Shown: positions 4,128 through 54,451 of the stretch, in pieces | Layout of the letters: every line of letters starts with the position of its first letter | Position numbering within the stretch: the stretch's first letter is position 1 | DNA from: a plasmid | DNA length: 64,000 nucleotides | Reading direction: 5' to 3' (one strand) | Sequence record: NZ_CP014126.2 | Made by a program: the position numbers and the translations under genes | The notes under the pieces: generated by a model | The model's input: the letters and a program-made list of their open reading frames with translations, nothing else | Database searches by the model: none | What the model was told of the DNA's origin: nothing

Positions 4128-4461
4128 GATGCGTAAGAAAATCAGTTTTATTGACAGCAGTCTTGAGGATTTACGAGCTTTCCCGGAAGAGGCCCGCACC
4201 GCGTCAGGGTATCAGCTTGACCTGGTGCAGCAGGGACTGGAACCGGACGACTGGAAGCCATTTGCTTCAGTCGGTCAGGGAGCACGTGAAATACGCATCC
4301 GGGGTAATGACGGCATTTTCCGGGTCATGTATGTCGCCAAATTTGAAGAGGCCGTGTATGTGCTGCACTGCTTCCAGAAAAAGACACAGAAGACCAGCCA
4401 GAGTGACGTGGAACTTGCCCGGAATCGTTATCGCAGACTGGCAGAGGAGCGTAAAAAATGA
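4128..4461 (+). CDS. HigB/RelE-superfamily toxin (Gp49-like killer protein)
   Basis: 111 aa. Sits upstream of and overlaps (ATGA) an XRE-HTH gene, which is the HigBA arrangement. Typical size and charge. Confidence 0.55.
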
Positions 4462-4748
4462 ATATTCAGACTTTTGATAATGTGTGGGACGCGATCAGCG
4501 AAACGCCAGAGCAGGCGGAAAATATGAAACTTCGCGCCGAGTTAGTGAGCCGCCTGAATAGCTGGATTAAACGTAATGGCCTGAATCAGGCCACTGCCGC
4601 CGCTGCGCTGGGCGTTTCACAGCCAAGAGTGTCAGAGCTGGCAGGAGGCAAAATTAACTGCTTCTCGATTGATAAGCTGGTCAGCATGATGGCGCATGCC
4701 GGACTGCACATAACCAGTATTGAGATAAGCGAACCAGAGGCAGCTTGA
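4458..4748 (+). CDS. HigA-like XRE-family HTH antitoxin
   Basis: HTH segment NQATAAAALGVSQPRVSEL. 96 aa. Coupled to the upstream toxin. Confidence 0.6.
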   Translation: MNIQTFDNVWDAISETPEQAENMKLRAELVSRLNSWIKRNGLNQATAAAALGVSQPRVSELAGGKINCFSIDKLVSMMAHAGLHITSIEISEPEAA

Positions 4749-4805
4749 GCTGCCTTTTTGCCCCGCGCAAACTGCCAGGGCGGTAGCCCCTGCGGGGCAG
4801 GATAA

Positions 4806-4829
4806 ACCCGGTGCTGACGCACCGGCTAT
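4806..4829 (+). repeat. hairpin aaacccggtgc-tgac-gcaccggct, copy 1 of 3 (also at 6808-6831 and 8718-8741)
   Basis: Perfect 7-bp stem seen in three places. In copies 2 and 3 it is embedded in a longer 170-bp repeat. Confidence 0.6.
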
Positions 4830-4904
4830 ACCCTTTCACCTGACCGTCTTCATCCCTTCCCATCTGATGCTGATAGCTTGCCGTTTCTGATAACCGGGCT
4901 GATT

Positions 4905-4962
4905 CTGCCACTGCCACTGCCACTGCCACTGCCACTGCCACTGCCACTGCCACTGCCACTGC
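4905..4962 (+). repeat. Hexanucleotide microsatellite (CTGCCA/GCCACT) x about 9.7
   Basis: Perfect tandem hexamers seen directly. They abut the 5' edge of repeat copy B. Confidence 0.95.
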
Positions 4963-5483
4963 CGGGACATGGCCACCTTCGGCTCCCCGGCGTTGCCGGG
5001 TCGTCAGTCCCACTCCGCTAAGCGGCAAGCCGCTAAGCTCCGCCGAACCCCTCCGGGTTTCGGACATAGGGCCTGATGGCTGAGGTCAAAGGCTGCAACC
5101 GGCTATCGCCGGTGCTTCAACCGGGCGCGCTGCGCCCTTTAAAGGCGTCACGCCGTTCCGTCGTGACGACTGTGTTCATGCTCATCCCTGTGCTGTCACC
5201 CTTTTCCGGCTGGTACGGAGCGGAGGGCTTTTCGTAGCACAGTCATCCGTTCGCCCACTAGGGGTACGCTTCGCCGTTCCTCGCCCGTTCGCACTCGCCA
5301 CAAAGACGGCTCGCTTGCGCTGCGGCCTGCGGTGACGCCCCGTGTTCGCCCGTCTGCCGGTGCTACTTCTGCCCTTCGCCGCTCCATACCAACCGAAACA
5401 GGGTTTTAGTAACCATCAGAGGAGAACCAGCATGAACACACAGAACGTCAAAACCGCCGCAACCAAAACCACCGAAACCTGGG
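4963..5483 (+). repeat. Leading-region structured repeat, copy B
   Basis: Near-identical to copy A. Carries a compensatory hairpin variant (gcggc-aa-gccgc versus ccggc-aaa-gccgg). Confidence 0.7.
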
Positions 5484-6364
5484 TAAAACAAAACTTCGAC
5501 GTGCATCTGTCGATGCGCACAAATCGCCGGGTTAGTCTGGCGAAGCTGGAAGGCGATCTGATGAAGCACCGTGCCATGCAGAAACTGGGCGTTGATACTG
5601 AAGAGCTTTTCGATGACCTGCAGCTGGCAGTTGCGTGCATAACCACAATGATTGACAGGGGTGACATCGTCACACCGTCCGGATATGAGCTGGCGTCATC
5701 CGTGCGGTCTCTGGCTATCGAACTGTATCCTGAAGCGTGGGAGGCCGTGGATGGTCCTGATCTGCCGGAACTGGCATGGCTGCAGGCCGATGCTCCCGGA
5801 TGTCGTGAGGCTGAGCGTCAGTTATATATTGAGAATGCCCGTCCTTTTGGCGTCACCGTATACGGCTGCATGGAGTTCCATGAGGATGATCGAAATCTTG
5901 GCACGTACTGGCAGGATGGGGCAGTTTGCCTGGGCCGTGCTGATTCCATCACGGAGGCAATGGAGTTGCTGGTTCAGGCTGATCTGAACAATGACTGGCA
6001 ACTGTGCGACTACGATGCACTAAGCTTTCAGCCGAAGGTCGTCACGATCACCGACCTTGCACATCGAGTTGTGCTGCGCGGCAATGCCAGTAAGCTGGAA
6101 TGGACTGTACCTGAAACCGATCCGGCGGAACTTGAACGGATCGCTGAACAGAAAGCGGCACTGCTGAGCCAGGCTGCATTCGAGTCAGGCTGGGATAACT
6201 TTGAGACTGCCCGCATATTACGTAGCGAGGCTAACTTGTTGGAACTGGGCACCGTTCACGCCGTATGGCTGAACGATCCGAAAGTGGCAAAAGCCTTAAG
6301 AGAATACCGGCATCCGTCAAAACGCCTTGATGAAACAGAACTCATGGAAAATCTGGAGTTTTAG
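5432..6364 (+). CDS. hypothetical leading-region protein B (310 aa) with shared N-terminal leader
   Basis: Same RBS plus 17 codons as gene A, then a unique sequence. No family recognised. Confidence 0.55.
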   Translation: MNTQNVKTAATKTTETWVKQNFDVHLSMRTNRRVSLAKLEGDLMKHRAMQKLGVDTEELFDDLQLAVACITTMIDRGDIVTPSGYELASSVRSLAIELYPEAWEAVDGPDLPELAWLQADAPGCREAERQLYIENARPFGVTVYGCMEFHEDDRNLGTYWQDGAVCLGRADSITEAMELLVQADLNNDWQLCDYDALSFQPKVVTITDLAHRVVLRGNASKLEWTVPETDPAELERIAEQKAALLSQAAFESGWDNFETARILRSEANLLELGTVHAVWLNDPKVAKALREYRHPSKRLDETELMENLEF

Positions 6365-6434: not shown

Positions 6435-6755
6435 ATGGTAAATAACACTGCACCCGATGTAAGACTGCCTGCGGCATTTTCGCAGCCTGAATCATTGAAA
6501 ATCGCTGACATCGGTTGTCTGGCCAGTCTCATCCAGCAGCAGGATAGCTACGATGGTGCAGCCATCGAATCTGCCGCAGCGGCCGTTAACATGTTCGCCA
6601 GCTGCACGGGACTGGACAGTGAAAATGACCTGGCTGCAACAGCGATTACCGATTTGCTCACAAACCTCATGCACCTATGTGAAGTGATTGATCTGCCGTT
6701 CTGTGAGTTTCTGAGTCGCGCCGGTGAACATTTCGAAAATGAAACCGGCAGCTGA
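6435..6755 (+). CDS. small strongly acidic protein (106 aa, about 17 D/E versus 3 K/R)
   Basis: Composition counted by eye. DNA-mimic-like charge. Follows gene B. Confidence 0.45.
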   Translation: MVNNTAPDVRLPAAFSQPESLKIADIGCLASLIQQQDSYDGAAIESAAAAVNMFASCTGLDSENDLAATAITDLLTNLMHLCEVIDLPFCEFLSRAGEHFENETGS

Positions 6756-6784
6756 ATCCGTGCCGTGCAGGGCACAAAGCCTGC

Positions 6785-6955
6785 AGGCCTTTCAGGCCAG
6801 GCAAAACCCGGTGCTGACGCACCGGCTCTCCCCCTCCGCGTTCTCTGTAGTCTGCCAGTGATGCCGGGTGTTTCACTGCTGTCCGGATGGTGTCGCCGGT
6901 TATGCAGGCTCAGATGCAATTGCTGCCTTTACTGACTAAACATCAACTTCAGGGG
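6785..6955 (+). repeat. 170-bp upstream repeat module, copy 1 (contains the ccggtgc-tgac-gcaccgg hairpin); identical copy at 8692-8864
   Basis: Identical sequence blocks seen directly. Each one directly precedes a copy of the structured repeat. Confidence 0.8.
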
Positions 6956-7493
6956 CCGGGACATGGCCACCTTCGGCTCCCCGGCGTTGCCGGGTCGTCA
7001 GTCCCACTCCGCTAACCGGCAAAGCCGGTAAGCTCCGCCGAACCCCTCCGGGTTTCGGACATAGGGCCTGATGGCTGAGGTCAAAGGCTGCAACCGGCTA
7101 TCGCCGGTGCTTCAACCGGGCGCGCTGCGCCCTTTAAGGGCGTCACGCCGTTCCGTCGTGACGACTGTGTTCATGCTCATCCCTGTGCTGTCACCCTTTT
7201 CCGGCTGGTACGGAGCGGAGGGCTTTTCGTAGCACAGTCATCCGTTCGCCCACTAGGGGTACGCTTCGCCGTTCCTCGCCCGTTCGCACTCGCCACAAAG
7301 ACGGCTCGCTTGCGCTGCGGCCTGCGGTGACGCCCCGTGTTCGCCCGTCTGCCGGTGCTACTTCTGCCCTTCGCCGCTCCATACCAACCGAAACAGGGTT
7401 TTAGTAACCATCAGAGGAGAACCAGCATGAACACACAGAACGTCAAAACCGCCGCAACCAAAACCACCGAAACCTGGGCTGAAGGGCAAAACA
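6956..7493 (+). repeat. Leading-region structured repeat, copy C
   Basis: Near-identical to copies A and B. Shares 5 extra codons (AEGQN) with A. Confidence 0.7.
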
Positions 7494-10858: not shown

Positions 10859-11392
10859 TTATTTTTTGTCAGGCATTACGTCCGCAGCTAAGAAATTTTC
10901 AGGCGCGGGCGTTTTTTTATTCTGCTTCGCCATTGCGGTGTAAACCTCATCCCGTGCAATGAGCACGCGGTAAATACTCTTGATGATTGCAGCATATTCA
11001 CGACGCTGTTTGATCAGCTTCGGACTCGGGCCGGTGTTGTACATCCCGACGCTGTCCCAGTTTCTGCCATACTGTCTGAAATTTCGCGCCTCGATCCACG
11101 CACCGGTATAAATGCAGATGCACGGATCTTTCAGCAGCCTTTCCCGCGTAATATCAAACTTTTTCAGCTGATTAAAGTGAGAGCTGTTTATCTGCATATT
11201 GCAGACATCATGCGTGCCGCCGCTGCTTTTCGTATTCAGCGCATTATTACGCATGCGTGATTCCTGAATGGAATGCGCCATCAGGAGACGCGGATCAATA
11301 CCGAAATCCTGCCCGGCTTTTGTGAAACACATTTCCGGCGCAGCCTGCGCGCTGAATACAGCGGCAAGCGCGAGAGCAGCAAATATTTTCAT
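10859..11392 (-). CDS. Lytic transglycosylase (F geneX/orf169, R1 P19-like), signal peptide
   Basis: SLT-like ES....MQIN core (IQESRMRNN...DVCNMQINS). oriT-proximal and on the opposite strand, as in F. Confidence 0.75.
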   Translation of the reverse strand: MKIFAALALAAVFSAQAAPEMCFTKAGQDFGIDPRLLMAHSIQESRMRNNALNTKSSGGTHDVCNMQINSSHFNQLKKFDITRERLLKDPCICIYTGAWIEARNFRQYGRNWDSVGMYNTGPSPKLIKQRREYAAIIKSIYRVLIARDEVYTAMAKQNKKTPAPENFLAADVMPDKK

Positions 11393-11529
11393 TCTGATAA
11401 TCTCACGTACGTGCGCGTAAAGCGCCAGGCGGGTTCGTGTGGAAAATACCCGCTCAGATCATTGCTTGCAAGATAATTCGTTACAGACGCGCACGTTGCG
11501 CTGACCGGCTGGTGACGAACCTTGTCAGG

Positions 11530-12230
11530 GATATAAAGAATTCAGCAGGATAGCTTTATTTATCAAGCCGCTCTCCGGGTGTAAGATTTCATCACACCCC
11601 ACGCAAGATTTCATCTTGCAGTTTTTTTATTTTAAAACATAGAGTTATCCTGTTTTTAATGGAGTTTTTTGTTTATATAAAATTAAAAGTGTGCTAATTA
11701 ACACACTTTACAGTGCCGTATTGTGTGTCATGATGGTGCCTTATTGTGTGTTGTTATGGTGCTGGATTGTGTGTTGTGACAGTGCCGCCTTGTGTGGTAA
11801 TTAGGCACTGCAAAAGGCACTGTAGGGTGTGCTAATTATCGCTAGTCATTAAAATCAATAACCTAGATATATGCTACGCCATGCTAGTGCCTGATTAACA
11901 CACATCAAAACAGCCCACAGTGCCGGATTGGCACACCTAAAATAGAGTAGTAATGCCTGCTCACCACATCTTAGTTACTCAGGTTTTATCATTTCTTATG
12001 GCCTGGAAAGCTATATAGTGCTGAATTAACACACATTTTTGATGCGTCGCCTGCTATATCAGATCTCATGAAAAAATAATTACCTAGTGCTGGATTGACA
12101 CACACTCATTCAAAGAGAAATAATTAAAACAGCTGAGCTACACCTTCTACATATTTCTCCAGAAAAGATGCTCTGGTTTCTTATTCGCTTAAATTTTTCA
12201 GAATGCGATCTTATTTTCGCCGCTACGGAG
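11530..12230 (-). other. oriT: oriT region; F-like nic motif on the bottom strand: 5'-gcaagatgaaatcttGCGTGGGGTGT|GATG-3', nic predicted between 11594 and 11593
   Basis: Matches F oriT GCGTGGGGTGT|GGTG, preceded by an inverted repeat as in F. Location between geneX and traM. Confidence 0.65.
11685..12110. promoter_or_regulatory. Array of at least 9 copies of GTGC(C/T)NNATTRNCACAC-like motifs (TraM/TraY/IHF-binding-like oriT repeats)
   Basis: Examples: gtgctaattaacacac, gtgccgtattgtgtgt, gtgctggattgtgtgttg, gtgctgaattaacacaca, gtgctggattgacacacac. AT-rich context. Confidence 0.5.
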
Positions 12231-12240
12231 TGACAGCAAA

Positions 12241-12627
12241 ATGGCCCGAAGGAATATTTATTTTAAAGAGAAAACTGAAAGGGAAGTCCTTGAGCTTGTA
12301 CAGATTGAGCTTCAGAACGGAGCCACACACGGCGAGATAAACTTTTCCTCTGTTGTGAATGAGCTCGTCGGTATTGGTTTGATGGTAAAAAAACATCAGG
12401 GTGAAGGTAGCAAGTTTGATGCTGAGGGATTCAATCGAGATCTGATACGCAAAGTTTCGGGAACCCGTGAAGGAACCAGCATTATGATTGCAATGCTTAC
12501 AGAAATGTACCTGCATGTCAGAGGAGAGAACAATGCACACGCTCTGGAGGAGCTGATTGACCGTAACCTGACGGGGATAAGTGCGGCAGAGGATAGGGCT
12601 GAAAATAAGCATTTTATCCAGGAATAA
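12241..12627 (+). CDS. traM: TraM (oriT-binding relaxosome accessory protein)
   Basis: 128 aa. First gene after oriT. Colinear with F TraM (N-terminal RHH-like, then VSFS..... and an acidic C-terminus). Confidence 0.75.
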   Translation: MARRNIYFKEKTEREVLELVQIELQNGATHGEINFSSVVNELVGIGLMVKKHQGEGSKFDAEGFNRDLIRKVSGTREGTSIMIAMLTEMYLHVRGENNAHALEELIDRNLTGISAAEDRAENKHFIQE

Positions 12628-12654
12628 CGAAGCCGGGCGTTTGCCCGGCAATTT

Positions 12655-13920
12655 TTAATTTACGCGCGAAACAGGGATTCTCAGCGTGAACGTAGTACCC
12701 TTTCCGATTTCAGAGTGTGCCTTTATTGAACCGCTCATGGTTTTTATATAACTGTTCACAATAGTAAGTCCGAGTCCAAGACCTTGCCTGGTTTCTGATT
12801 CAGCACCTTGATTAAAAGGCTTGTAGAGGAACTTTAACTTACGCATGTCAAAGCCACATCCATTATCACTTACTCTTATCATTAAAATTCTATCGGTCAG
12901 TCTGAGTCTTACATCTATTAATCCATTACTGGTGTTTTTATTGGAATTATCTATCAGGTTGTGAATAATCGATATGAGCTTTTGCTTATCAGTTCGAATC
13001 AGTGTTTCAGGCAGGTTTACATGAAACTCTAATGTGTTTGTTGTTTCATTGAAGAGTGACATGCTTGATTCGATTATTTCATTGAGCCTGAAAGTTGTCA
13101 CATTTAAACCAACGTTTCCGATTTCAATCTTCGAGAACTCAAGGATCTCTTTTGTTTGCTGGAAGAGTTTATTTGAGTGTAATGAGATTTTTGCAAGATA
13201 TTTCTGAGTTGCGAGCATGCCCTCTTGGGGATCTATCATATCGCATGCGAGTTGAATTTTTTGGATTGAACCAGACATTTCGTGATAAATTGCCGAGATA
13301 AAGATATTCTTACCTTTTATGGCTGCTTTAAGTTTGGAGATGTGCATCCATAATACGATCATTAGAAGAAAAAGAAGGAATATACTTGCGAGCGCAGTTG
13401 TTTCTGCACTCATTGAGTTATCGCTTATTATCTTTTTAACTCTCTCAAAGTTTTTAATCTGAATACGATAGATGATTTGTTGGAGGTCAATCAAAGCCGG
13501 TTGCATTTCATCCATTTTACTTAGCAGCATTGCTTTTGTTGATGAAGGGTTTTCCGGATTATAGAGTGCGCCTAAATCAGCGCTTTGTTTTTCAATATTA
13601 CTTAGAGCTGATATGAAATCTGGCTCGTAATAAAACGTGCCGCTATAATTATATTTATTGCGAAGGATTAGTAGTTTTGAGTCAAAGACGGATTTACTGA
13701 TCAGGAAAGCATTCGGATTTTCAGTTTTATAAACTGCAGTTCTGGTACGTTCGAAAGCAAGAAATAATATTTCTGCAGTAGAATAGTTATCAAGAGTAGG
13801 AGCTATACTTCTGTACTGATTTTTTACTTCATTGAACTTCATAACAGTTAGATAGACGGAACCTCCAAAAAGCAGAGTCAGTACCAGGCCAAAAAATACC
13901 GCTGTTTTTTTACCTTTCAT
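12655..13920 (-). CDS. Sensor histidine kinase (2 TM helices, periplasmic domain, HisKA plus HATPase_c)
   Basis: H-box IYHEMSGS. N-box HNLIDNSNKN. G1 DNGCGF. G2 GLGLGLTIV. TM helices at the N-terminus and around aa 170-190. Confidence 0.8.
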   Translation of the reverse strand: MKGKKTAVFFGLVLTLLFGGSVYLTVMKFNEVKNQYRSIAPTLDNYSTAEILFLAFERTRTAVYKTENPNAFLISKSVFDSKLLILRNKYNYSGTFYYEPDFISALSNIEKQSADLGALYNPENPSSTKAMLLSKMDEMQPALIDLQQIIYRIQIKNFERVKKIISDNSMSAETTALASIFLLFLLMIVLWMHISKLKAAIKGKNIFISAIYHEMSGSIQKIQLACDMIDPQEGMLATQKYLAKISLHSNKLFQQTKEILEFSKIEIGNVGLNVTTFRLNEIIESSMSLFNETTNTLEFHVNLPETLIRTDKQKLISIIHNLIDNSNKNTSNGLIDVRLRLTDRILMIRVSDNGCGFDMRKLKFLYKPFNQGAESETRQGLGLGLTIVNSYIKTMSGSIKAHSEIGKGTTFTLRIPVSRVN

Positions 13921-14371
13921 CTACCGCCTCAATTCTGTTTATCTGCCAGACAGTGCGAGCATTTACTTCAAGATTATTCAACTCTGGATGCTGGTCCCTG
14001 GGATAAATGACAGCAAAAGGACCGAGATCTGAGACGGGTATCTGTTTTCCGTTTTTCTTGTAGGCAAGGATGACTCCATACTTGTCCAGTTCGGCTACGG
14101 GGAGGGTATAGCTGTAGTCATCAAGAGCAAAGATTCGCAACTGAGAGGCCTGAACACCGTACGATTTCAGGAGCGTAGTAAAAGTTACACCTTCGAATGT
14201 TGCTTCAGGGGTGAAATTAGTAGAGGTTTTAATAGTTGATAAAGCCAGATGTGACAGGTCTTCTGTAGTGATCGTTCTAGTCGTTTTACCAAAAACTAAC
14301 TGAAGCGTGTCTGCCAGCACCACAGGTGCTGACGTCATGGAGAGACACAATATACATGCCCTTATTATCAT
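13910..14371 (-). CDS. secreted/periplasmic hypothetical protein (153 aa)
   Basis: N-terminal signal peptide. Overlaps both neighbours, consistent with an operon. Confidence 0.45.
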   Translation of the reverse strand: MIIRACILCLSMTSAPVVLADTLQLVFGKTTRTITTEDLSHLALSTIKTSTNFTPEATFEGVTFTTLLKSYGVQASQLRIFALDDYSYTLPVAELDKYGVILAYKKNGKQIPVSDLGPFAVIYPRDQHPELNNLEVNARTVWQINRIEAVDER

Positions 14372-14811
14372 TTTTGTTTCCTTTTTCGCATGATCAGTTG
14401 GCCAAATTCATCGTCACCTTGCGGCACCCAACCTCGGGCTGCATAAAATCCTGCCGCAGAAGACCCTTTATCGGTGGTCAGTTCAATCTGGTCATCACTT
14501 CCGCTAAAGAACCAGTCTGTGATCCTTTCGAGTATCTCACTCCCAATACCTCGCCCGTGATACTCCGGTCTGACAAACAGGCCGCCAATGAGGGCATGGG
14601 GAATGTGTATACCCAGTCCGTAACCCACAAACTCGTCATTAATACTGCAGATCCATCCACCCCCCTGGCTGATGTCTTCAATTACCTGTTCTCTCTGCAG
14701 ATATTGTATCTGGTGAGCATGAACCATGTTTTCCTTTACAGAAAAACGGATGTCGTAAACTTCCTTGATGTGTCTTGGTTCAAGTTTCAGGAATTCCATT
14801 TTTAGTACCAT
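14368..14811 (-). CDS. GNAT family N-acetyltransferase
   Basis: RPEYHGRGIGSEIL acetyl-CoA binding motif. 147 aa. Confidence 0.75.
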   Translation of the reverse strand: MVLKMEFLKLEPRHIKEVYDIRFSVKENMVHAHQIQYLQREQVIEDISQGGGWICSINDEFVGYGLGIHIPHALIGGLFVRPEYHGRGIGSEILERITDWFFSGSDDQIELTTDKGSSAAGFYAARGWVPQGDDEFGQLIMRKRKQK

Positions 14812-14814
14812 TAT

Positions 14815-15585
14815 TTAATAGAAAATGTTTGCCAGAAGAATTGAGGATAAAATAAACACCCGCGTCGGTTTCTCGACAAGTTCAACACCATACTTGACGA
14901 TGGTTTCACCGATTTCCTGTTCATGCTGATTTAACTGTCCTGTTAACAAGATAATCGGAACTTTCTCATCTGTACTGCGAATTTTCTTAATGACTTCCTC
15001 TGAGTTTTGATCATAGTCAAGTAGCCAGTCAATAACATACCCATCATAAGATTCGCTATCAATAGCTTCACTGAGAGAGGCCGCAGTCTGAAAGGCCTGC
15101 CCGTCTATGCCGTACCTATTGGATACAGACTGCATTAACTCCAGGATTTCATTGTCATTATCAAGTATCGCTATTTTTGGGGCAGGCAAAAGGTCCATTT
15201 TCTTTACTTTCTTCATATCTTTGTGAATTTTTGAAGAAGTCGGGTTTATAATATAGAAGTTCTTACTTTTATATGCATAGTTAATACCAGGTTCTTTAAC
15301 CTCTACATCTTCATTACTTACTTCAACATTACATCGGATATGAATGTCGTTTACTATAAATAAGCCATTATAGTTACGCCTATCATCTAATGATTCATTG
15401 AAGAAAGAAAAAATACGTTTTACTTCCTGATAAGTTATGCCACGTTTTTCGTCTAGTTTTTGTTTGGCGCTCTTATATTGAATGTCTAGTATTTCAGCAA
15501 TAGTAGATGCCTGCTTTCTTTTTCCTATTCCCTTCCGTTCCAACAGGTTCAGGACTTTTTCAAGATTTAGCTTTGGTCTTTCCAA
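14815..15585 (-). CDS. Atypical response regulator: N-terminal HTH-like domain plus C-terminal receiver domain
   Basis: REC signature LDND...YDGYVIDWLL(D)...ILLTG(T)...VEKP(K) in the C-terminal half. N-terminal KQASTIAEILDIQYKSAKQKL is HTH-like. Sits in the position of traJ but on the opposite strand. Confidence 0.6.
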   Translation of the reverse strand: MERPKLNLEKVLNLLERKGIGKRKQASTIAEILDIQYKSAKQKLDEKRGITYQEVKRIFSFFNESLDDRRNYNGLFIVNDIHIRCNVEVSNEDVEVKEPGINYAYKSKNFYIINPTSSKIHKDMKKVKKMDLLPAPKIAILDNDNEILELMQSVSNRYGIDGQAFQTAASLSEAIDSESYDGYVIDWLLDYDQNSEEVIKKIRSTDEKVPIILLTGQLNQHEQEIGETIVKYGVELVEKPTRVFILSSILLANIFY

Positions 15586-15829
15586 TTGAACACCCGGCTG
15601 TATTGAATAGATTTAATAGTTTGCGTTTTTGCATTTCAATTTGGGTTAACTCAAAGATGATACACGACTGACGAACTTTTGAAGATAATTTTATGCTGTC
15701 AACTTATTGATATATATAGAGTTATTGTAAGTCCTCGCAATGGAATCAGAAAAATCCTCAAAAAATACTCAGCAAGGGGTTCACTTAGGGAGCGGTTATC
15801 TAGTAAAGTAGTGTAAGTGCCTTACATAC

Positions 15830-15994
15830 ATGTGCTCGCAGCGTAACGCCAAAGCTGTCGTGCTGTGTAAGGTGAGGCTCAATGTCAGTTTAAAAAAATA
15901 TGAACTCATGCTACGCCATAGCCTCACTGAATTTATTCTTGAATGGGGTCTAACTGCTACTGATGAGCTCATATATAAAATAATACATACATAA
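15830..15994 (+). CDS. candidate small RHH-like protein (54 aa), possible TraY analogue
   Basis: Not in the ORF track (under 60 aa). Translated by hand as MCSQRNAKAVVLCKVRLNVSLKKYELMLRHSLTEFILEWGL.... Upstream of traA, where traY sits in F. Confidence 0.2.
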   Translation: MCSQRNAKAVVLCKVRLNVSLKKYELMLRHSLTEFILEWGLTATDELIYKIIHT

Positions 15995-16045
15995 ACCTAT
16001 GCCGAAGTGTTCTCCACAAACATCTTTGCATAGCTGCGTTCAATC

Positions 16046-16082
16046 AGCCCCTCTCCTGTTCAGCATGTCTGGTGAGGGGCAG
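16046..16082 (+). other. hairpin gcccctctcc-N15-gtgaggggc in the traA upstream region
   Basis: 7-8 bp GC stem seen directly. Confidence 0.35.
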
Positions 16083-16287
16083 TTGATCGTTTTACAGATA
16101 CTTTCCAGATAGGTTTCCAACACCAGGGTTTTTTCTTCTTCTTTTCATTAACTAAGAGTTTTCTTTTCTCAGGAGGTGTGAGGTATCTAAAAGCCAAATT
16201 TCATTATCAATACTAGTCCCCGTTAATTAATGCATACGCTTTATGCGCGTATGAACTCAGTGTTTTTTTTAAACTGGATATTCACAA

Positions 16288-16710
16288 ATGAAAATTACCC
16301 ACTCCGTTACCGGTTTACCGGTGAACGTGGCGGTAGCATTGCCTGATGAGGTTAAGACTCACACAGGCAATGTATTCAGCCGCACCGCCAACCGTTTCCA
16401 TTCTGCTTCTTCTCTGTTCTTAACCTCCCTGAAATCCTCCCCCTCATTTCGCCACAGCCTAATGCTGTGCGCGTTGATGCTGGTTGTTGTGGCTTTTCCA
16501 CATATTGCTAATGCCACTGACCTGCTGAAGACGCAGCAGCAGGATGCCAGTGACACGTTTGGCCTGCAAAGCTCCGTTATGCGCTGGATTTATTTCGCAG
16601 AGATCATCATTTCAGTTGTGGGGTTCATTAAGACCCGAAATCCTCTGGTTTTTGTCGGCCTTATTGTGGTCCTGCTCGTAACCCGTGCTTTCTACGGTAT
16701 GGTCGGGTGA
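16288..16710 (+). CDS. traA: Propilin TraA (F-type pilin with long leader)
   Basis: C-terminal DLLKTQQQDASDTFGLQSSVMRWIYFAEIIISVVGFIKTRNPLVFVGLIVV... aligns with mature F pilin DLMASGNTTVKATFGKDSSVVKWVVLAEVLVGAVMYMMTKNVKF.... Confidence 0.75.
   Translation: MKITHSVTGLPVNVAVALPDEVKTHTGNVFSRTANRFHSASSLFLTSLKSSPSFRHSLMLCALMLVVVAFPHIANATDLLKTQQQDASDTFGLQSSVMRWIYFAEIIISVVGFIKTRNPLVFVGLIVVLLVTRAFYGMVG
16329..16340 (+). promoter_or_regulatory. ops-like element GGCGGTAGCATT (10/12 to RfaH ops consensus GGCGGTAGCGTG) on the non-template strand near the traA 5' end
   Basis: Sequence seen directly. An RfaH paralog is encoded 3.5 kb downstream. Confidence 0.4.
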
Positions 16711-16713
16711 TAT

Positions 16714-17019
16714 ATGGAAGACAGGGAATCGCGAAGGTATTACTTCCCGGAAACCCTAAACAACCAAAAGCGTTGGTTTGGTCTGCCACCTGAAGAGGCG
16801 GTTATTCTCATTGGTTGTGGCGGACTGGGGTTCTGGATTGACATGTTTGTCATCATGCTCATTACCGGCGGTGCGCTCTGGCTTCTTATACGTCACCTTA
16901 AGAAGGGGCAGGGGTCCTGGTGGCTTCTGAACCTTCTTTATTGGTATCTGCCCACCACGCTTTTCCGGACGCAGCTGCGGCGTGTTCCGGATTCCGGCAA
17001 CCGTCACTGGATGCAGTAG
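16714..17019 (+). CDS. traL: TraL (VirB3-like pilus assembly protein)
   Basis: YYFPETLNNQKRWFGLP..E...............KLKKGQGSWWLLNLLYWYLPT...........VPDS matches F TraL. Confidence 0.85.
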   Translation: MEDRESRRYYFPETLNNQKRWFGLPPEEAVILIGCGGLGFWIDMFVIMLITGGALWLLIRHLKKGQGSWWLLNLLYWYLPTTLFRTQLRRVPDSGNRHWMQ

Positions 17020-49441: not shown

Positions 49442-50094
49442 TGGGGCATTTACTACATATAGTAGATATAGCAGCTGGCACAGCCACTACATATAGCGTT
49501 ATCCGCAGAAACAGTAGATAAGCTCGGTTTACCACTGCCCCTTACGCACCAAAATTATGGGCCACATGCAGAAGTCTGAAATTAATCCTCCGGACTCTGC
49601 AGTGTCCCGCTAAAAAAGTGGAGCATCACTGAATAGACAACTTAACTACTTCGGCTGTTCGTTCCTCGCTACGCTGCGGTACGCCTCAACCAAAGTAGTT
49701 AAGTCGTTGCCTCGTTACCTCTCTCATACACGTCCATCAACTTACCATTCTTAATGCTGGTCACAGCAATGTAGGTCCATAAACCAGATTTCAGATCCGC
49801 CATATATTTGATTTTGCTCTGGTGAAAAGTGGAACACTGACATGACATCAGAATTGATTTCATGATGTATTCCTAAGCGACCGATACTAATTGAGGTCAT
49901 TCTGTACTGGATTTAAATGGGACAGATGGGTATCCTTTTCAGAATTCGCCGGATGGCGATCCTTTTAGATCCTCGCCTGAGAATTGTGGAGATTCAATGG
50001 CGGGATGGCAGAAAACCTGTGACCGGACATGCGCGGCGCGGGGAAGAACAAACCGGATGGGACGTATCCGTAAAACGTCCAGGGTGCAGAGCTT

Positions 50095-50185
50095 CAGTTT
50101 CACCGGGCTCTGAATGCAAAAACCCCCTGATTCTTCTCAACTTTGGCGGGCTGGCAAGAAATCAGGGGGTCCAAAAGCAGGCGCT
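50095..50185 (-). ncRNA. copA: CopA-like antisense RNA region of the IncFII-type replicon (two stem-loops; loop contains TTGGCG)
   Basis: Stems cagagc...gctctg and accccctgattcttc...gaagaaatcagggggt seen directly. TTGGCGGG loop as in R1/R100 CopA. Located in the repA leader. Confidence 0.4.
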
Positions 50186-50254
50186 GTGCCTGTAAAGGAT
50201 TATAACGCATGCAATTCATAAGACAACCCCTGTCCGCCATAAGTACTGGACAGG

Positions 50255-51460: not shown

Positions 51461-52349
51461 GCCATTCTGAGAATAGATAAGGCCTTCGCTTGCAGCGGCC
51501 GCAGGCGTCCGCGCCGCTCAGAATCTGAAGTAGCTCCCGCCTGCGGCGGGCATGGTGAAAACTCATTAGTTACAACACTCATAATTACGATATAAGGACA
51601 CTTCAGAGCCGTCCTGAAGCCTCCAGCCCATCTCCAGCAAGACCGAGCCGTCCTGAAACTCCGAGTGCCCATTAACAGGCCGCCCCCGCCCGGCCCTTCG
51701 GGCCGGAACAGGAGTGGCTGTGATGGATGGTGTAACTAATCCTCTAAGCTTTACTGTTCATAGTGAACAGTAAAGCCAAGACCCCGGAAATCGCGCCCTG
51801 TACGTCGCTCTGCGCCGTCCAGCCCGCTCACCGGGGCTTCGGGATTAGATAAACGTTATCGTCGCTTTAAGGCCGTCTCGCTTAGCAGGAAGGGGTTGGT
51901 TAGCGCCATATATCAAGCCGTAACCGGCTGCGCCGGGCGTACGGCGCCGTCTGACCACTGTACCCTGCGCTGACATCATCTGGCGCCTCCATGCCGCTTA
52001 GCGGCATACAAAGCGTTATACTCAGCTCTGGAGGTGCCAATATGTCTTACAATCTGGCCAGCAAAGAAAAGAGTGAAAGAGAAAGAGTCAGCGTTGACCT
52101 TGCAGCTGCTGGAGTAGCTTACAAAGAACGGCTTAATATGCCGGTGATCCCGCATGAGGTTGAACTGCAGCAGCCAGCGGCGCTGCGTGAATATTTCCGT
52201 GAAAGAGTTGTGCATTACCGGCAGCAATCAGAGTTACTGCCTAAAGGCACTGATGCTGTCTATCAGAAGGAAGCCAAAGAGTAGCGCCGTAAATACACTA
52301 TGAAGGGTAACCACCCTGCGTTTCAGGACTATCCACTATACCGGGGGAT

Positions 52350-53884: not shown

Positions 53885-54451
53885 GTGATTCATATAAAAG
53901 ATAACTCTCTCTATATAAGGTTACAAACTTTGAAAAAATTAAAAAAGTGCTGTCTGCTTTCTTTGGCTTTACCTTTCTTTTCTCACGCTGACGCTGATAT
54001 CAATGCTGGGTTTTCACCAGGGGGAACAGCCCAAGATTTGATCCTCAACTTCATCCACTCAGCTGCCGGTTCTGTCGATGTGGCGGCGTACGACTTCACC
54101 AGCGAACCGGTTGCAGAAGCGCTCAGTCAGTTGGCTCAGAGTGGAGTACGCGTAAGAATTGTTGCAGATGAGAAAAAAAGTCACGACCGCTGGTCACTGG
54201 TTAACAAGCTGGCCTGTTCAGGTATTCAGGTCAGAACAGATGAGCAGTACAGTATTATGCATAACAAATTTATTGTGACTGGAAATAACGGCGTGCAAAC
54301 GGGATCGTTTAATTACACCTCATCGGCTGAAAAACGTAATGCTGAGAATGCCCTGGTTATCCGAGGCAATTCATTCCTGAGTCAGCAGTATCAGAATGAA
54401 TTTAACCGCCTTTGGGCAGAGTCATCGCCCGTACAGTGCAACTATTCATGA
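53885..54451 (+). CDS. nuc: Phospholipase-D-family endonuclease (Nuc-like), secreted
   Basis: HNKFIV (HxK of the HKD motif). Signal peptide. Size about Nuc of pKM101. A TTG start near 53929 is possible. Confidence 0.65.
   Translation: MIHIKDNSLYIRLQTLKKLKKCCLLSLALPFFSHADADINAGFSPGGTAQDLILNFIHSAAGSVDVAAYDFTSEPVAEALSQLAQSGVRVRIVADEKKSHDRWSLVNKLACSGIQVRTDEQYSIMHNKFIVTGNNGVQTGSFNYTSSAEKRNAENALVIRGNSFLSQQYQNEFNRLWAESSPVQCNYS

Follow-up and report, generated by a model that had tools for sequence, protein, structure and literature searches.

The stretch analysed here, 64,000 nt of plasmid record NZ_CP014126.2 (hereafter the window; coordinates below are window positions), carries a transfer region in which the gap between traM and traA is filled by four minus-strand open reading frames (ORFs), encoding a response regulator, a GNAT acetyltransferase, a secreted protein and a histidine kinase. 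The region is 99.5% identical to plasmid pT88c_C of Pantoea agglomerans T88c (NZ_CP134722.1). All four ORFs of the module are intact. Neighbouring genes overlap, by 11 nt (secreted protein/kinase) and 4 nt, or are separated by a 3-nt gap, and the GC content is 0.33–0.40 in the regulator and kinase genes and 0.44–0.48 in those for the acetyltransferase and the secreted protein, as compared with 0.50–0.55 in the tra genes. A first-pass annotation of the window had described a tightly overlapping, AT-rich operon on the strand opposite to tra, with a two-component system in the place of traJ and traY; ORF positions, base composition and domain content all agree with that description, and the system is complete. 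The slot and its borders contain the following features.

12241..12627, plus strand: traM, relaxosome protein gene, left border of the slot (Pfam Tra_M, 2.1e-12; TraM in the 99.5%-identical record)
12632..12649, strand not applicable: GC-rich hairpin GCCGGGCGTTTGCCCGGC separating traM from the kinase gene, which converges on it; terminator-like on both strands (7 GC pairs in the terminator scan)
12655..13920, minus strand: sensor histidine kinase, 421 aa (HATPase_c, 3.9e-23)
13910..14371, minus strand: secreted PruR-family protein (SUOX-fold, pterin-binding type), 153 aa, as predicted by phmmer against PDB and Pfam Oxidored_molyb
14368..14811, minus strand: GNAT acetyltransferase, 147 aa (Acetyltransf_1, 2.3e-13)
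14815..15585, minus strand: response regulator, 256 aa (Pfam BetR and Response_reg, both above cut-off)
15586..16287, strand not applicable: divergent control region, 702 bp, from regulator to traA (four-plasmid alignment, ORF lists)
15733..15773, minus strand: four direct TTTTGAG(T)-like repeats, candidate regulator site (conserved upstream of 11 regulator genes)
16288..16710, plus strand: traA, propilin gene, first of the transfer operon, right border of the slot (Pfam TraA, 4.5e-5; annotated pilin TraA)

Proteins encoded by the module

The architecture proposed at first pass for the regulator, an N-terminal helix-turn-helix (HTH) and a C-terminal receiver, was recovered with Pfam as a BetR HTH at residues 7–65 (5.3e-8; 33.5 bits against a cut-off of 21.6, with only profile positions 6–64 of 148 matched) and a Response_reg domain at residues 138–240 (3.2e-7; 30.9 bits against a cut-off of 30.2). 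PF08667 is present in the precomputed annotation of 65 of the 71 regulator homologues. In alignments of 15 and 45 homologues, D142, D186 (the phospho-acceptor), W187, T215, G216, K239 and P240 vary little or not at all, and the acidic pocket made up of D142 and D144 is conserved. An AlphaFold2 model built with database homologues (pLDDT 88.1) displays a four-helix HTH (residues 4–61), a beta-rich middle part (74–132) and a canonical receiver (137–254). Foldseek searches with this model retrieved receiver domains only, at target-normalised TM-scores of ~0.7–0.87; neither a solved full-length relative nor a TraJ-like fold was among the hits. By these sequence features the protein is a predicted receiver-domain response regulator with a BetR HTH.

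In the kinase, two transmembrane (TM) segments (at residues ~7–27 and ~176–196) flank a periplasmic loop of ~148 aa (~28–175), and the cytoplasmic part consists of a TorS-like DHp and ATPase core, with no HAMP or PAS domain found in the protein. The HATPase_c profile of Pfam scores 82.5 bits and HisKA only 16.6 bits, which is under the cut-off; the best NCBIfam match is TorS (2.1e-34, residues 200–419). Thirteen homologues all retain H213-E214, N321, N325, D352xG354xG356 and G380xG382xG384, and by its H, N, G1 and G2 boxes the protein is a predicted classical two-component histidine kinase. The profile annotation suggested at first pass thus returned BetR and Response_reg in the regulator, Acetyltransf_1 in the acetyltransferase and HATPase_c in the kinase, HisKA being weak. 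Two segments of the kinase loop are conserved, KFNxxKxQY and LDNYSxxEIxFLxFE. A phmmer search with kinase residues 1–200 against 1.84e9 representative proteins yielded 18 close kinases only and no GGDEF or EAL proteins.

The secreted protein carries a signal peptide that, as read from the sequence, ends in VVLA and is followed by DT. When it was compared with PDB using phmmer, matches were obtained to 7KOM (7.2e-19), 7RKB (3.5e-18), 7KP2 (1.9e-17) and 7KOS (5e-17), all of them deposited as pterin-binding protein PruR, and the Pfam family Oxidored_molyb was matched at 8.5e-7 (29.1 bits, cut-off 24). In PruR of Agrobacterium tumefaciens the pterin site comprises L101-N102, Y104 and W160, the molybdenum cofactor (Moco) cysteine of SUOX being replaced by Trp (PMC11194511). 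In our alignment the ALDDY and VWQ motifs of the secreted protein coincide with these pterin-site residues, and the Leu, the Tyr and the Trp are retained. The protein is accordingly placed, by homology, as a predicted member of the PruR pterin-binding family. A true molybdoenzyme was considered and ruled out, since the protein has only 153 aa and fits the truncated PruR class.

For the acetyltransferase no specific NCBIfam family was found, its top match, ArsN2, reaching 21.7 bits against a cut-off of 125. The gene lies within a conserved four-gene unit that is present on plasmids as well as in Serratia and Erwinia chromosomal copies. In the Klebsiella, E. coli and Shigella variant of the module a protein of ~310–330 aa replaces the acetyltransferase (at 4432–5361 in locus L014, 4373–5356 in L015, 4375–5370 in L016 and 7784–8770 in L011; L numbers designate the loci used for comparison). 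Weak similarity to glycosyltransferase 9 (GT9) was detected in three of the four copies scanned, and the Paraburkholderia copy has an annotated GT9 protein at the same position. The kinase of the Klebsiella, E. coli and Shigella variant is a hybrid with its own receiver.

Absence of the F-type regulators and the divergent control region

The first-pass annotation had reported that traJ is missing from the slot and finO from the region after traI, and had allowed that a traJ or traY might have been overlooked. No TraJ-family ORF lies on the tra strand between traM and traA, and neither TraJ, TraY nor FinO/ProQ is annotated anywhere in the 99.5%-identical public record; both absences are thus upheld, and no overlooked traJ or traY was found in the slot or in that record. 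Downstream of traI there are a DsbA/ScsC-like gene, a 92-aa ORF and an IncFII-like repA, that is, ORFs with other domains. No other transfer regulator was found in the window. A hidden FinP or traJ leader was rejected, as the Rfam scan of window positions 11000–17000 gave no match at E≤1. The 54-aa ORF at 15830–15994, which had been offered as a possible stand-in for TraY, had to be abandoned: like the other small ORFs of 15586–16287 it has no Pfam match at E≤10, blastp and tblastn comparisons with TraY were negative, it is not called by PGAP, and it is not conserved in L003 or L005, in whose equivalent region no conserved small ORF was found. The same Pfam scan detected TraY of two other plasmids with related modules, L002 and L016 (Pfam 5.8e-18 and 6.2e-17).

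Within the control region only the regulator-proximal ~200 bp are conserved in the four-plasmid alignment. When the 300 nt upstream of 11 regulator genes, including the Serratia chromosomal, Arsenophonus and Enterobacter copies, were aligned, the sole conserved block consisted of four TTTTGAG(T)-like units with 11-bp spacing. In the window this array (15733–15773) reads on the regulator strand, inside the divergent control region, and represents a candidate binding site for the regulator. The pattern CTCAAAAAN3-4CTC occurs once in the 64 kb, compared with 0.10 matches expected, and no second repeat box was found in the window. In seven of the eight fetched loci with a match, the pattern lies in the intergenic region upstream of the regulator; the match in L008 is elsewhere.

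No strong sigma-70 consensus site was detected on either strand of the control region (15586–16287). By eye, the minus-strand TATCAT at 15657–15662, which is conserved upstream of the regulators, could be the −10 element of the regulator gene, and TTCACT-N18-TAAAGT at 15781–15810, just downstream of the repeat box, could be a weak plus-strand promoter; neither was reported by the consensus sigma-70 scan.

History of the slot and distribution of the module

Comparative genomics, which had been proposed at first pass, recovered the module from the traM–traA slot of about 14 plasmids of Pantoea and Erwinia, with a nucleotide identity of only ~66% (distant blastn); the hosts in which it lies beside traM are P. 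agglomerans, P. ananatis, Pantoea sp. and Erwinia billingiae. Nonsynonymous divergence (pN) of all four genes is 0.19–0.40, as compared with a synonymous divergence (pS) of 0.71–0.95, at which synonymous sites are saturated; the respective values are 0.25–0.37 and 0.81–0.86 for the kinase, and 0.21–0.29 and 0.74–0.79 for the acetyltransferase. Saturated pS combined with low pN points to long coexistence under purifying selection, and a recent insertion into one plasmid is ruled out by the syntenic copies at 66% identity. As judged from these comparisons, the module is a long-established allele of a regulatory slot whose content can be exchanged. The earlier description of the module as horizontally acquired consequently holds in a deep sense only, namely that it is AT-rich in every context (the chromosomal copies, too, are AT-rich relative to their flanks), and not in the sense of a recent arrival.

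The content of the slot varies among otherwise similar plasmids. The slot-adjacent leading region is 90–95% identical among the window, L002 and L006; the slot of L002 holds a 66%-identical module and that of L006 a gene for a ~200-aa Arc-family DNA-binding protein on the minus strand. An Arc-type gene is also located in the slot of Pectobacteriaceae, Phytobacter and Rahnella plasmids. Since sister plasmids carry an Arc-type regulator at this position, the slot can be regarded as a regulator slot, and the ~200-aa Arc/ribbon-helix-helix protein of these F-like plasmids appears to be an undescribed substitute for TraJ. The Arc-type genes were found at 5401–6006 in L006, 4934–5548 in L007, 5444–6106 in L008 and 3138–3752 in L009.

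Rearranged and reduced versions of the module were encountered as well. In an Enterobacter IncFII plasmid, the genes for the acetyltransferase, the PruR-like protein and the kinase follow traM on its own strand, and the regulator gene diverges from traA. A Serratia fonticola plasmid possesses an orphan regulator only (L019, 5953–6732), divergent from traY-traY-traA; a homologous kinase encoded on Serratia chromosomes might serve this lone regulator. In the Erwinia billingiae TH88 plasmid (L003, 2918–4194) the kinase is split into three ORFs. The slot of Pantoea ananatis plasmid L005 contains two regulator paralogues (5169–5939 and 6503–7273), of which the module-attached one has Glu rather than Asp at the phospho-acceptor position.

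In order to describe the wider distribution, the regulator sequence was used as a tblastn query, which matched 465 plasmid records, including 260 from Klebsiella, 57 from Escherichia and 35 from Salmonella; 384 of the 465 were typed as conjugative. MOB-suite types NZ_CP134722.1 as non-mobilizable despite its full F-type type IV secretion system (T4SS), TraD and 1947-aa MobF relaxase, so that the counts of conjugative plasmids obtained from that typing are underestimates. Among 15 plasmid records sampled, the regulator adjoins a T4SS operon of the F, T or I type in 13, which span three mating-pair-formation (MPF) classes and two proteobacterial classes; a Rhizobium plasmid departs from this pattern, as does a Serratia liquefaciens record with chromosomal-looking content. 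Sets of regulator, PruR-like protein and kinase are divergent from VirB-, I- and F-type T4SS operons on plasmids of Serratia symbiotica, Arsenophonus, Klebsiella, Shigella and Paraburkholderia. On the Serratia symbiotica and Arsenophonus plasmids the four-gene set adjoins a VirB-type T4SS, another regulator gene and a NusG-family gene being located between the regulator and the T4SS genes in Serratia symbiotica. A diverged form of the module, inspected in four examples, is composed of the regulator, a GT9-like protein of ~330 aa, a PruR-like protein and a hybrid kinase; its regulator gene and the first genes of an MPF_I, MPF_T or MPF_F operon are transcribed divergently, and the Paraburkholderia plasmid likewise has this arrangement facing its T4SS.

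The first-pass annotation was aware of no two-component system embedded at this position of an F-type tra region. Such systems are in fact common in public plasmids, and the remark stands only in that no paper describing them was found. Our search of open-access papers and bioRxiv for one linking this type of system to conjugation gave no result.

Four-gene units are also present on chromosomes. The Serratia unit, which belongs to a sequence cluster with 194 members, has the thi operon on one side and rpoBC on the other; that of Erwinia pyrifoliae is flanked by insertion sequence elements. When species-representative genomes were searched with the regulator alignment, a single locus was returned, which gives no census.

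Two features of the transfer operon itself bear on how its transcription might be continued.

16327..16346, plus strand: ops-like element, core GGCGGTAGCATT at 16329–16340, 5' end of traA
19789..20337, plus strand: RfaH paralogue within the tra operon, after traB (NCBIfam RfaH equivalog; Pfam NusG, 1.6e-22)

An element of the GGCGGTAGnnTG type was sought near the operon start; the one found has the core given above, which differs from GGCGGTAGNNTG at one position and lies within annotated traA. It is part of a 20-nt island, GTGGCGGTAGCATTGCCTGA, that starts 39 nt inside the annotated ORF and is invariant in four plasmids, third codon positions included, with flanks only ~60% identical. Possibly the true start codon of traA lies farther downstream; otherwise the ops-like site may operate inside coding sequence. 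The RfaH paralogue, which scores 150.3 bits against the equivalog cut-off of 124, is the likely reader of the ops-like element. Plasmid RfaH paralogues that act at ops sites include ActX of IncX plasmids; what the window has in common with them is an RfaH-family gene in the transfer operon and a conserved, putative element of the GGCGGTAG type near the operon start. In contrast to ops sites, the window element is located inside annotated traA and ends in ATT, not GTG.

Several other loci were noted in the window. Upstream of traM (~11690–12130) there is an array of about ten direct and inverted AGTGCCGGATTGACACAC-like repeats, also present in L002 and L006, which are probably binding sites for TraM or the relaxosome at oriT. 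A Shedu defence nuclease gene lies between the dsbA-like gene and repA in NZ_CP134722.1 (57521–58891) and is missing from the window (49442–50254). A homologue of the DNA polymerase III theta subunit and a PLD-family nuclease-like gene (51991–52284 and 53885–54451) are situated near a second, Rep3-type replication gene.

Proposed control of transfer and alternative readings

Only one system with these protein types (kinase, secreted protein and regulator) has been characterised, AirS/AirM/AirR of Chromobacterium violaceum, whose signalling depends on AirM (Lozano et al., mBio 2020, PMC7240160). Comparison with its published description reveals, in both systems, a two-TM kinase that lacks any known sensor domain, an OxMoco protein that is secreted and a regulator combining BetR with a receiver, and the convergent regulator arrangement of Air recurs in the Serratia, Arsenophonus and Enterobacter versions of the module. 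Unlike in Air, a chromosomal system that governs violacein and quorum-sensing genes, the window genes are co-directional and include an acetyltransferase gene.

The secreted protein connects the module to a second class of systems. In the Agrobacterium periplasm PruR binds reduced monapterin and controls DcpA through the periplasmic loop of the latter; TorS/BaeS-like kinases make up 23–29% of PruR partners and have been named PruR-DTB systems, which often lie near regulator genes and for which the paper gives no output (Greenwich et al., PNAS 2024, PMC11194511). The window module shares with them a homologous small secreted SUOX-fold protein, whose gene is immediately upstream of and overlaps that of a two-TM kinase, a periplasmic loop of ~148 aa (published range 138–150 aa), a TorS-like core and an adjacent response-regulator gene. 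It differs from them in the acetyltransferase gene in the operon and in being plasmid-borne and facing a transfer operon. Neither the PruR-DTB paper nor a 2026 review of pterin signalling draws a link to plasmids or conjugative transfer (PMC11194511, PMC13259868), and the words plasmid and conjugation appear nowhere in the text of the review (PMC13259868).

With respect to the TraJ/TraY/FinOP circuit of F, the module has the same place, between traM and the first pilus gene, and presumably the same role of master regulator, and its slot is hypervariable against a conserved backbone, as are traJ alleles. Unlike TraJ, however, the window regulator lies on the opposite strand, is related to TraJ in neither sequence nor fold, is predicted to depend on phosphorylation and has its own membrane sensor. 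Unlike in the F circuit, no FinP (scan of 11000–17000), FinO or TraY was found.

Since the secreted protein matches PruR, the set can be read as a two-component system of the PruR-DTB or Air type. From the gene arrangement it seems probable, on balance, that this system replaces TraJ and sets the expression of the transfer operon. The earlier proposal that conjugation is switched by phosphorelay is therefore retained as the best reading, because the regulators adjoin T4SS operons in 13 of the 15 plasmid records sampled, and it stands as an argument from gene arrangement.

Under phosphorelay control, the 153-aa protein would be exported to the periplasm and, as its homology to PruR suggests, bind a small ligand, most likely a reduced pterin. 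Either the ligand-bound or the free form would contact the kinase loop and shift the balance between kinase and phosphatase activity, by analogy with PruR and DcpA. The kinase would phosphorylate Asp186 of the regulator, for which the needed residues are present, and the regulator would bind, through its BetR HTH, the four conserved 11-bp-spaced repeats at 15733–15773. Once bound, it would control, with either sign, its own operon and the divergent promoter into traA. Finally, recruitment of the RfaH paralogue to the ops-like site within traA would let transcription, once started, run through the 30-kb operon, a step suggested by conservation.

A number of observations weigh against control of transfer by this route or against its pterin signal. 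The kinase loop lacks the WX7E motif and contains no Trp; this motif, invariant in the periplasmic domain of the partner, defines DcpA-type PruR partners (PMC11194511). The loop has only 18 close relatives, and homology between the kinase and DcpA is neither shown nor excluded by the phmmer search with residues 1–200. For these reasons we refer to the module as PruR-DTB-like and Air-like, and not as a proven member of either group. The pterin-site Asn is Asp in the window and, according to the alignment, throughout the Erwiniaceae/Serratia clade (ALNDY is retained in the Klebsiella and E. coli plasmid variants). The repeat box is ~520 bp from the traA start codon and is also found in the Serratia chromosomal copy (L012), so that it may serve autoregulation only; autoregulation is accordingly the safest reading of the box, and control of the divergent tra promoter is suggested by position. 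Lastly, the Rhizobium plasmid copy lies away from a T4SS, and the chromosomal units of Serratia and Erwinia pyrifoliae have no T4SS nearby. Given these chromosomal copies, the module is not intrinsically a conjugation device, and they suggest a general-purpose signalling cassette, installed by plasmids at their transfer promoter.

Several of the same observations can be taken further, to the view that the module is cargo: a host-adaptive signalling cassette (for surface or redox cues, for example) regulating only itself and chromosomal targets, inserted in an AT-rich, recombination-prone slot that tolerates insertions, with transfer being constitutive or governed by nothing beyond host factors and RfaH. 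The chromosomal copies, the box upstream of the regulator even in Serratia, the single box in the window and the Rhizobium plasmid all fit this view, as does the fact that AirSMR, the sole characterised relative, controls violacein and other chromosomal genes (PMC7240160). Cargo is at odds with the position of the regulator beside the first genes of the T4SS operon in 13 of 15 sampled records, with the presence of another DNA-binding regulator in the slot of sister plasmids and with the lack of any other transfer regulator in the window, and we consider it unlikely.

Alternatively, with unchanged wiring but the opposite sign, the regulator could be a repressor that replaces FinOP as an analogue of fertility inhibition and keeps the tra promoter off until it is removed by the signal. 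Conjugative systems are mostly repressed by default, no FinOP was found, and the Arc-type proteins in the slots of sister plasmids belong to a repressor family. Moreover, the plasmid of Erwinia billingiae TH88 tolerates a broken kinase, and in that of Serratia fonticola the regulator alone has been retained. Two features, neither of them decisive, speak for an activator instead: the control region has no strong sigma-70 promoter, which fits activator dependence, and the helically spaced repeats just upstream of a weak plus-strand −35/−10 pair resemble, by eye, an activator site. We judge repression to be a somewhat more remote prospect than cargo. That the module is a decaying, non-functional remnant, as the weak HisKA match and the three-ORF kinase of Erwinia billingiae TH88 might suggest, is very improbable in view of four intact ORFs, conserved catalytic and phospho-acceptor residues and strong purifying selection over saturated synonymous divergence.

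Returning to phosphorelay control, the assignment of the secreted protein to the PruR family provides a concrete hypothesis for the signal. In its boldest form, which we advance tentatively and as doubtful, a periplasmic pterin sensor would be the master switch of conjugation here and on hundreds of Klebsiella, E. coli, Salmonella and Shigella plasmids of the F, T and I types, and the GNAT or GT9-like enzyme may tailor the signal. If so, the cue for transfer would be a redox-sensitive metabolite that the bacterial community excretes.

To our knowledge, the control of transfer timing is known for a few models only, namely TraJ/FinOP of F, TraR of Ti plasmids and the pheromone plasmids. In plasmids of plant-associated Erwiniaceae a predicted sensor kinase with a pterin-type co-sensor stands at the head of the transfer operon, and the diverged form of the module is found in many clinical Klebsiella, E. 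coli, Shigella and Salmonella plasmids. The traM–traA slot is also seen to be a swappable regulator cassette, able to accommodate TraJ, an Arc-type protein or a whole phosphorelay. If the proposed control of transfer is correct, an external chemical cue could be named for plasmid spread, the PruR-DTB class would acquire its first output, a matter left open by its authors, and the ligand, the kinase or the regulator would offer a target for interfering with transfer.

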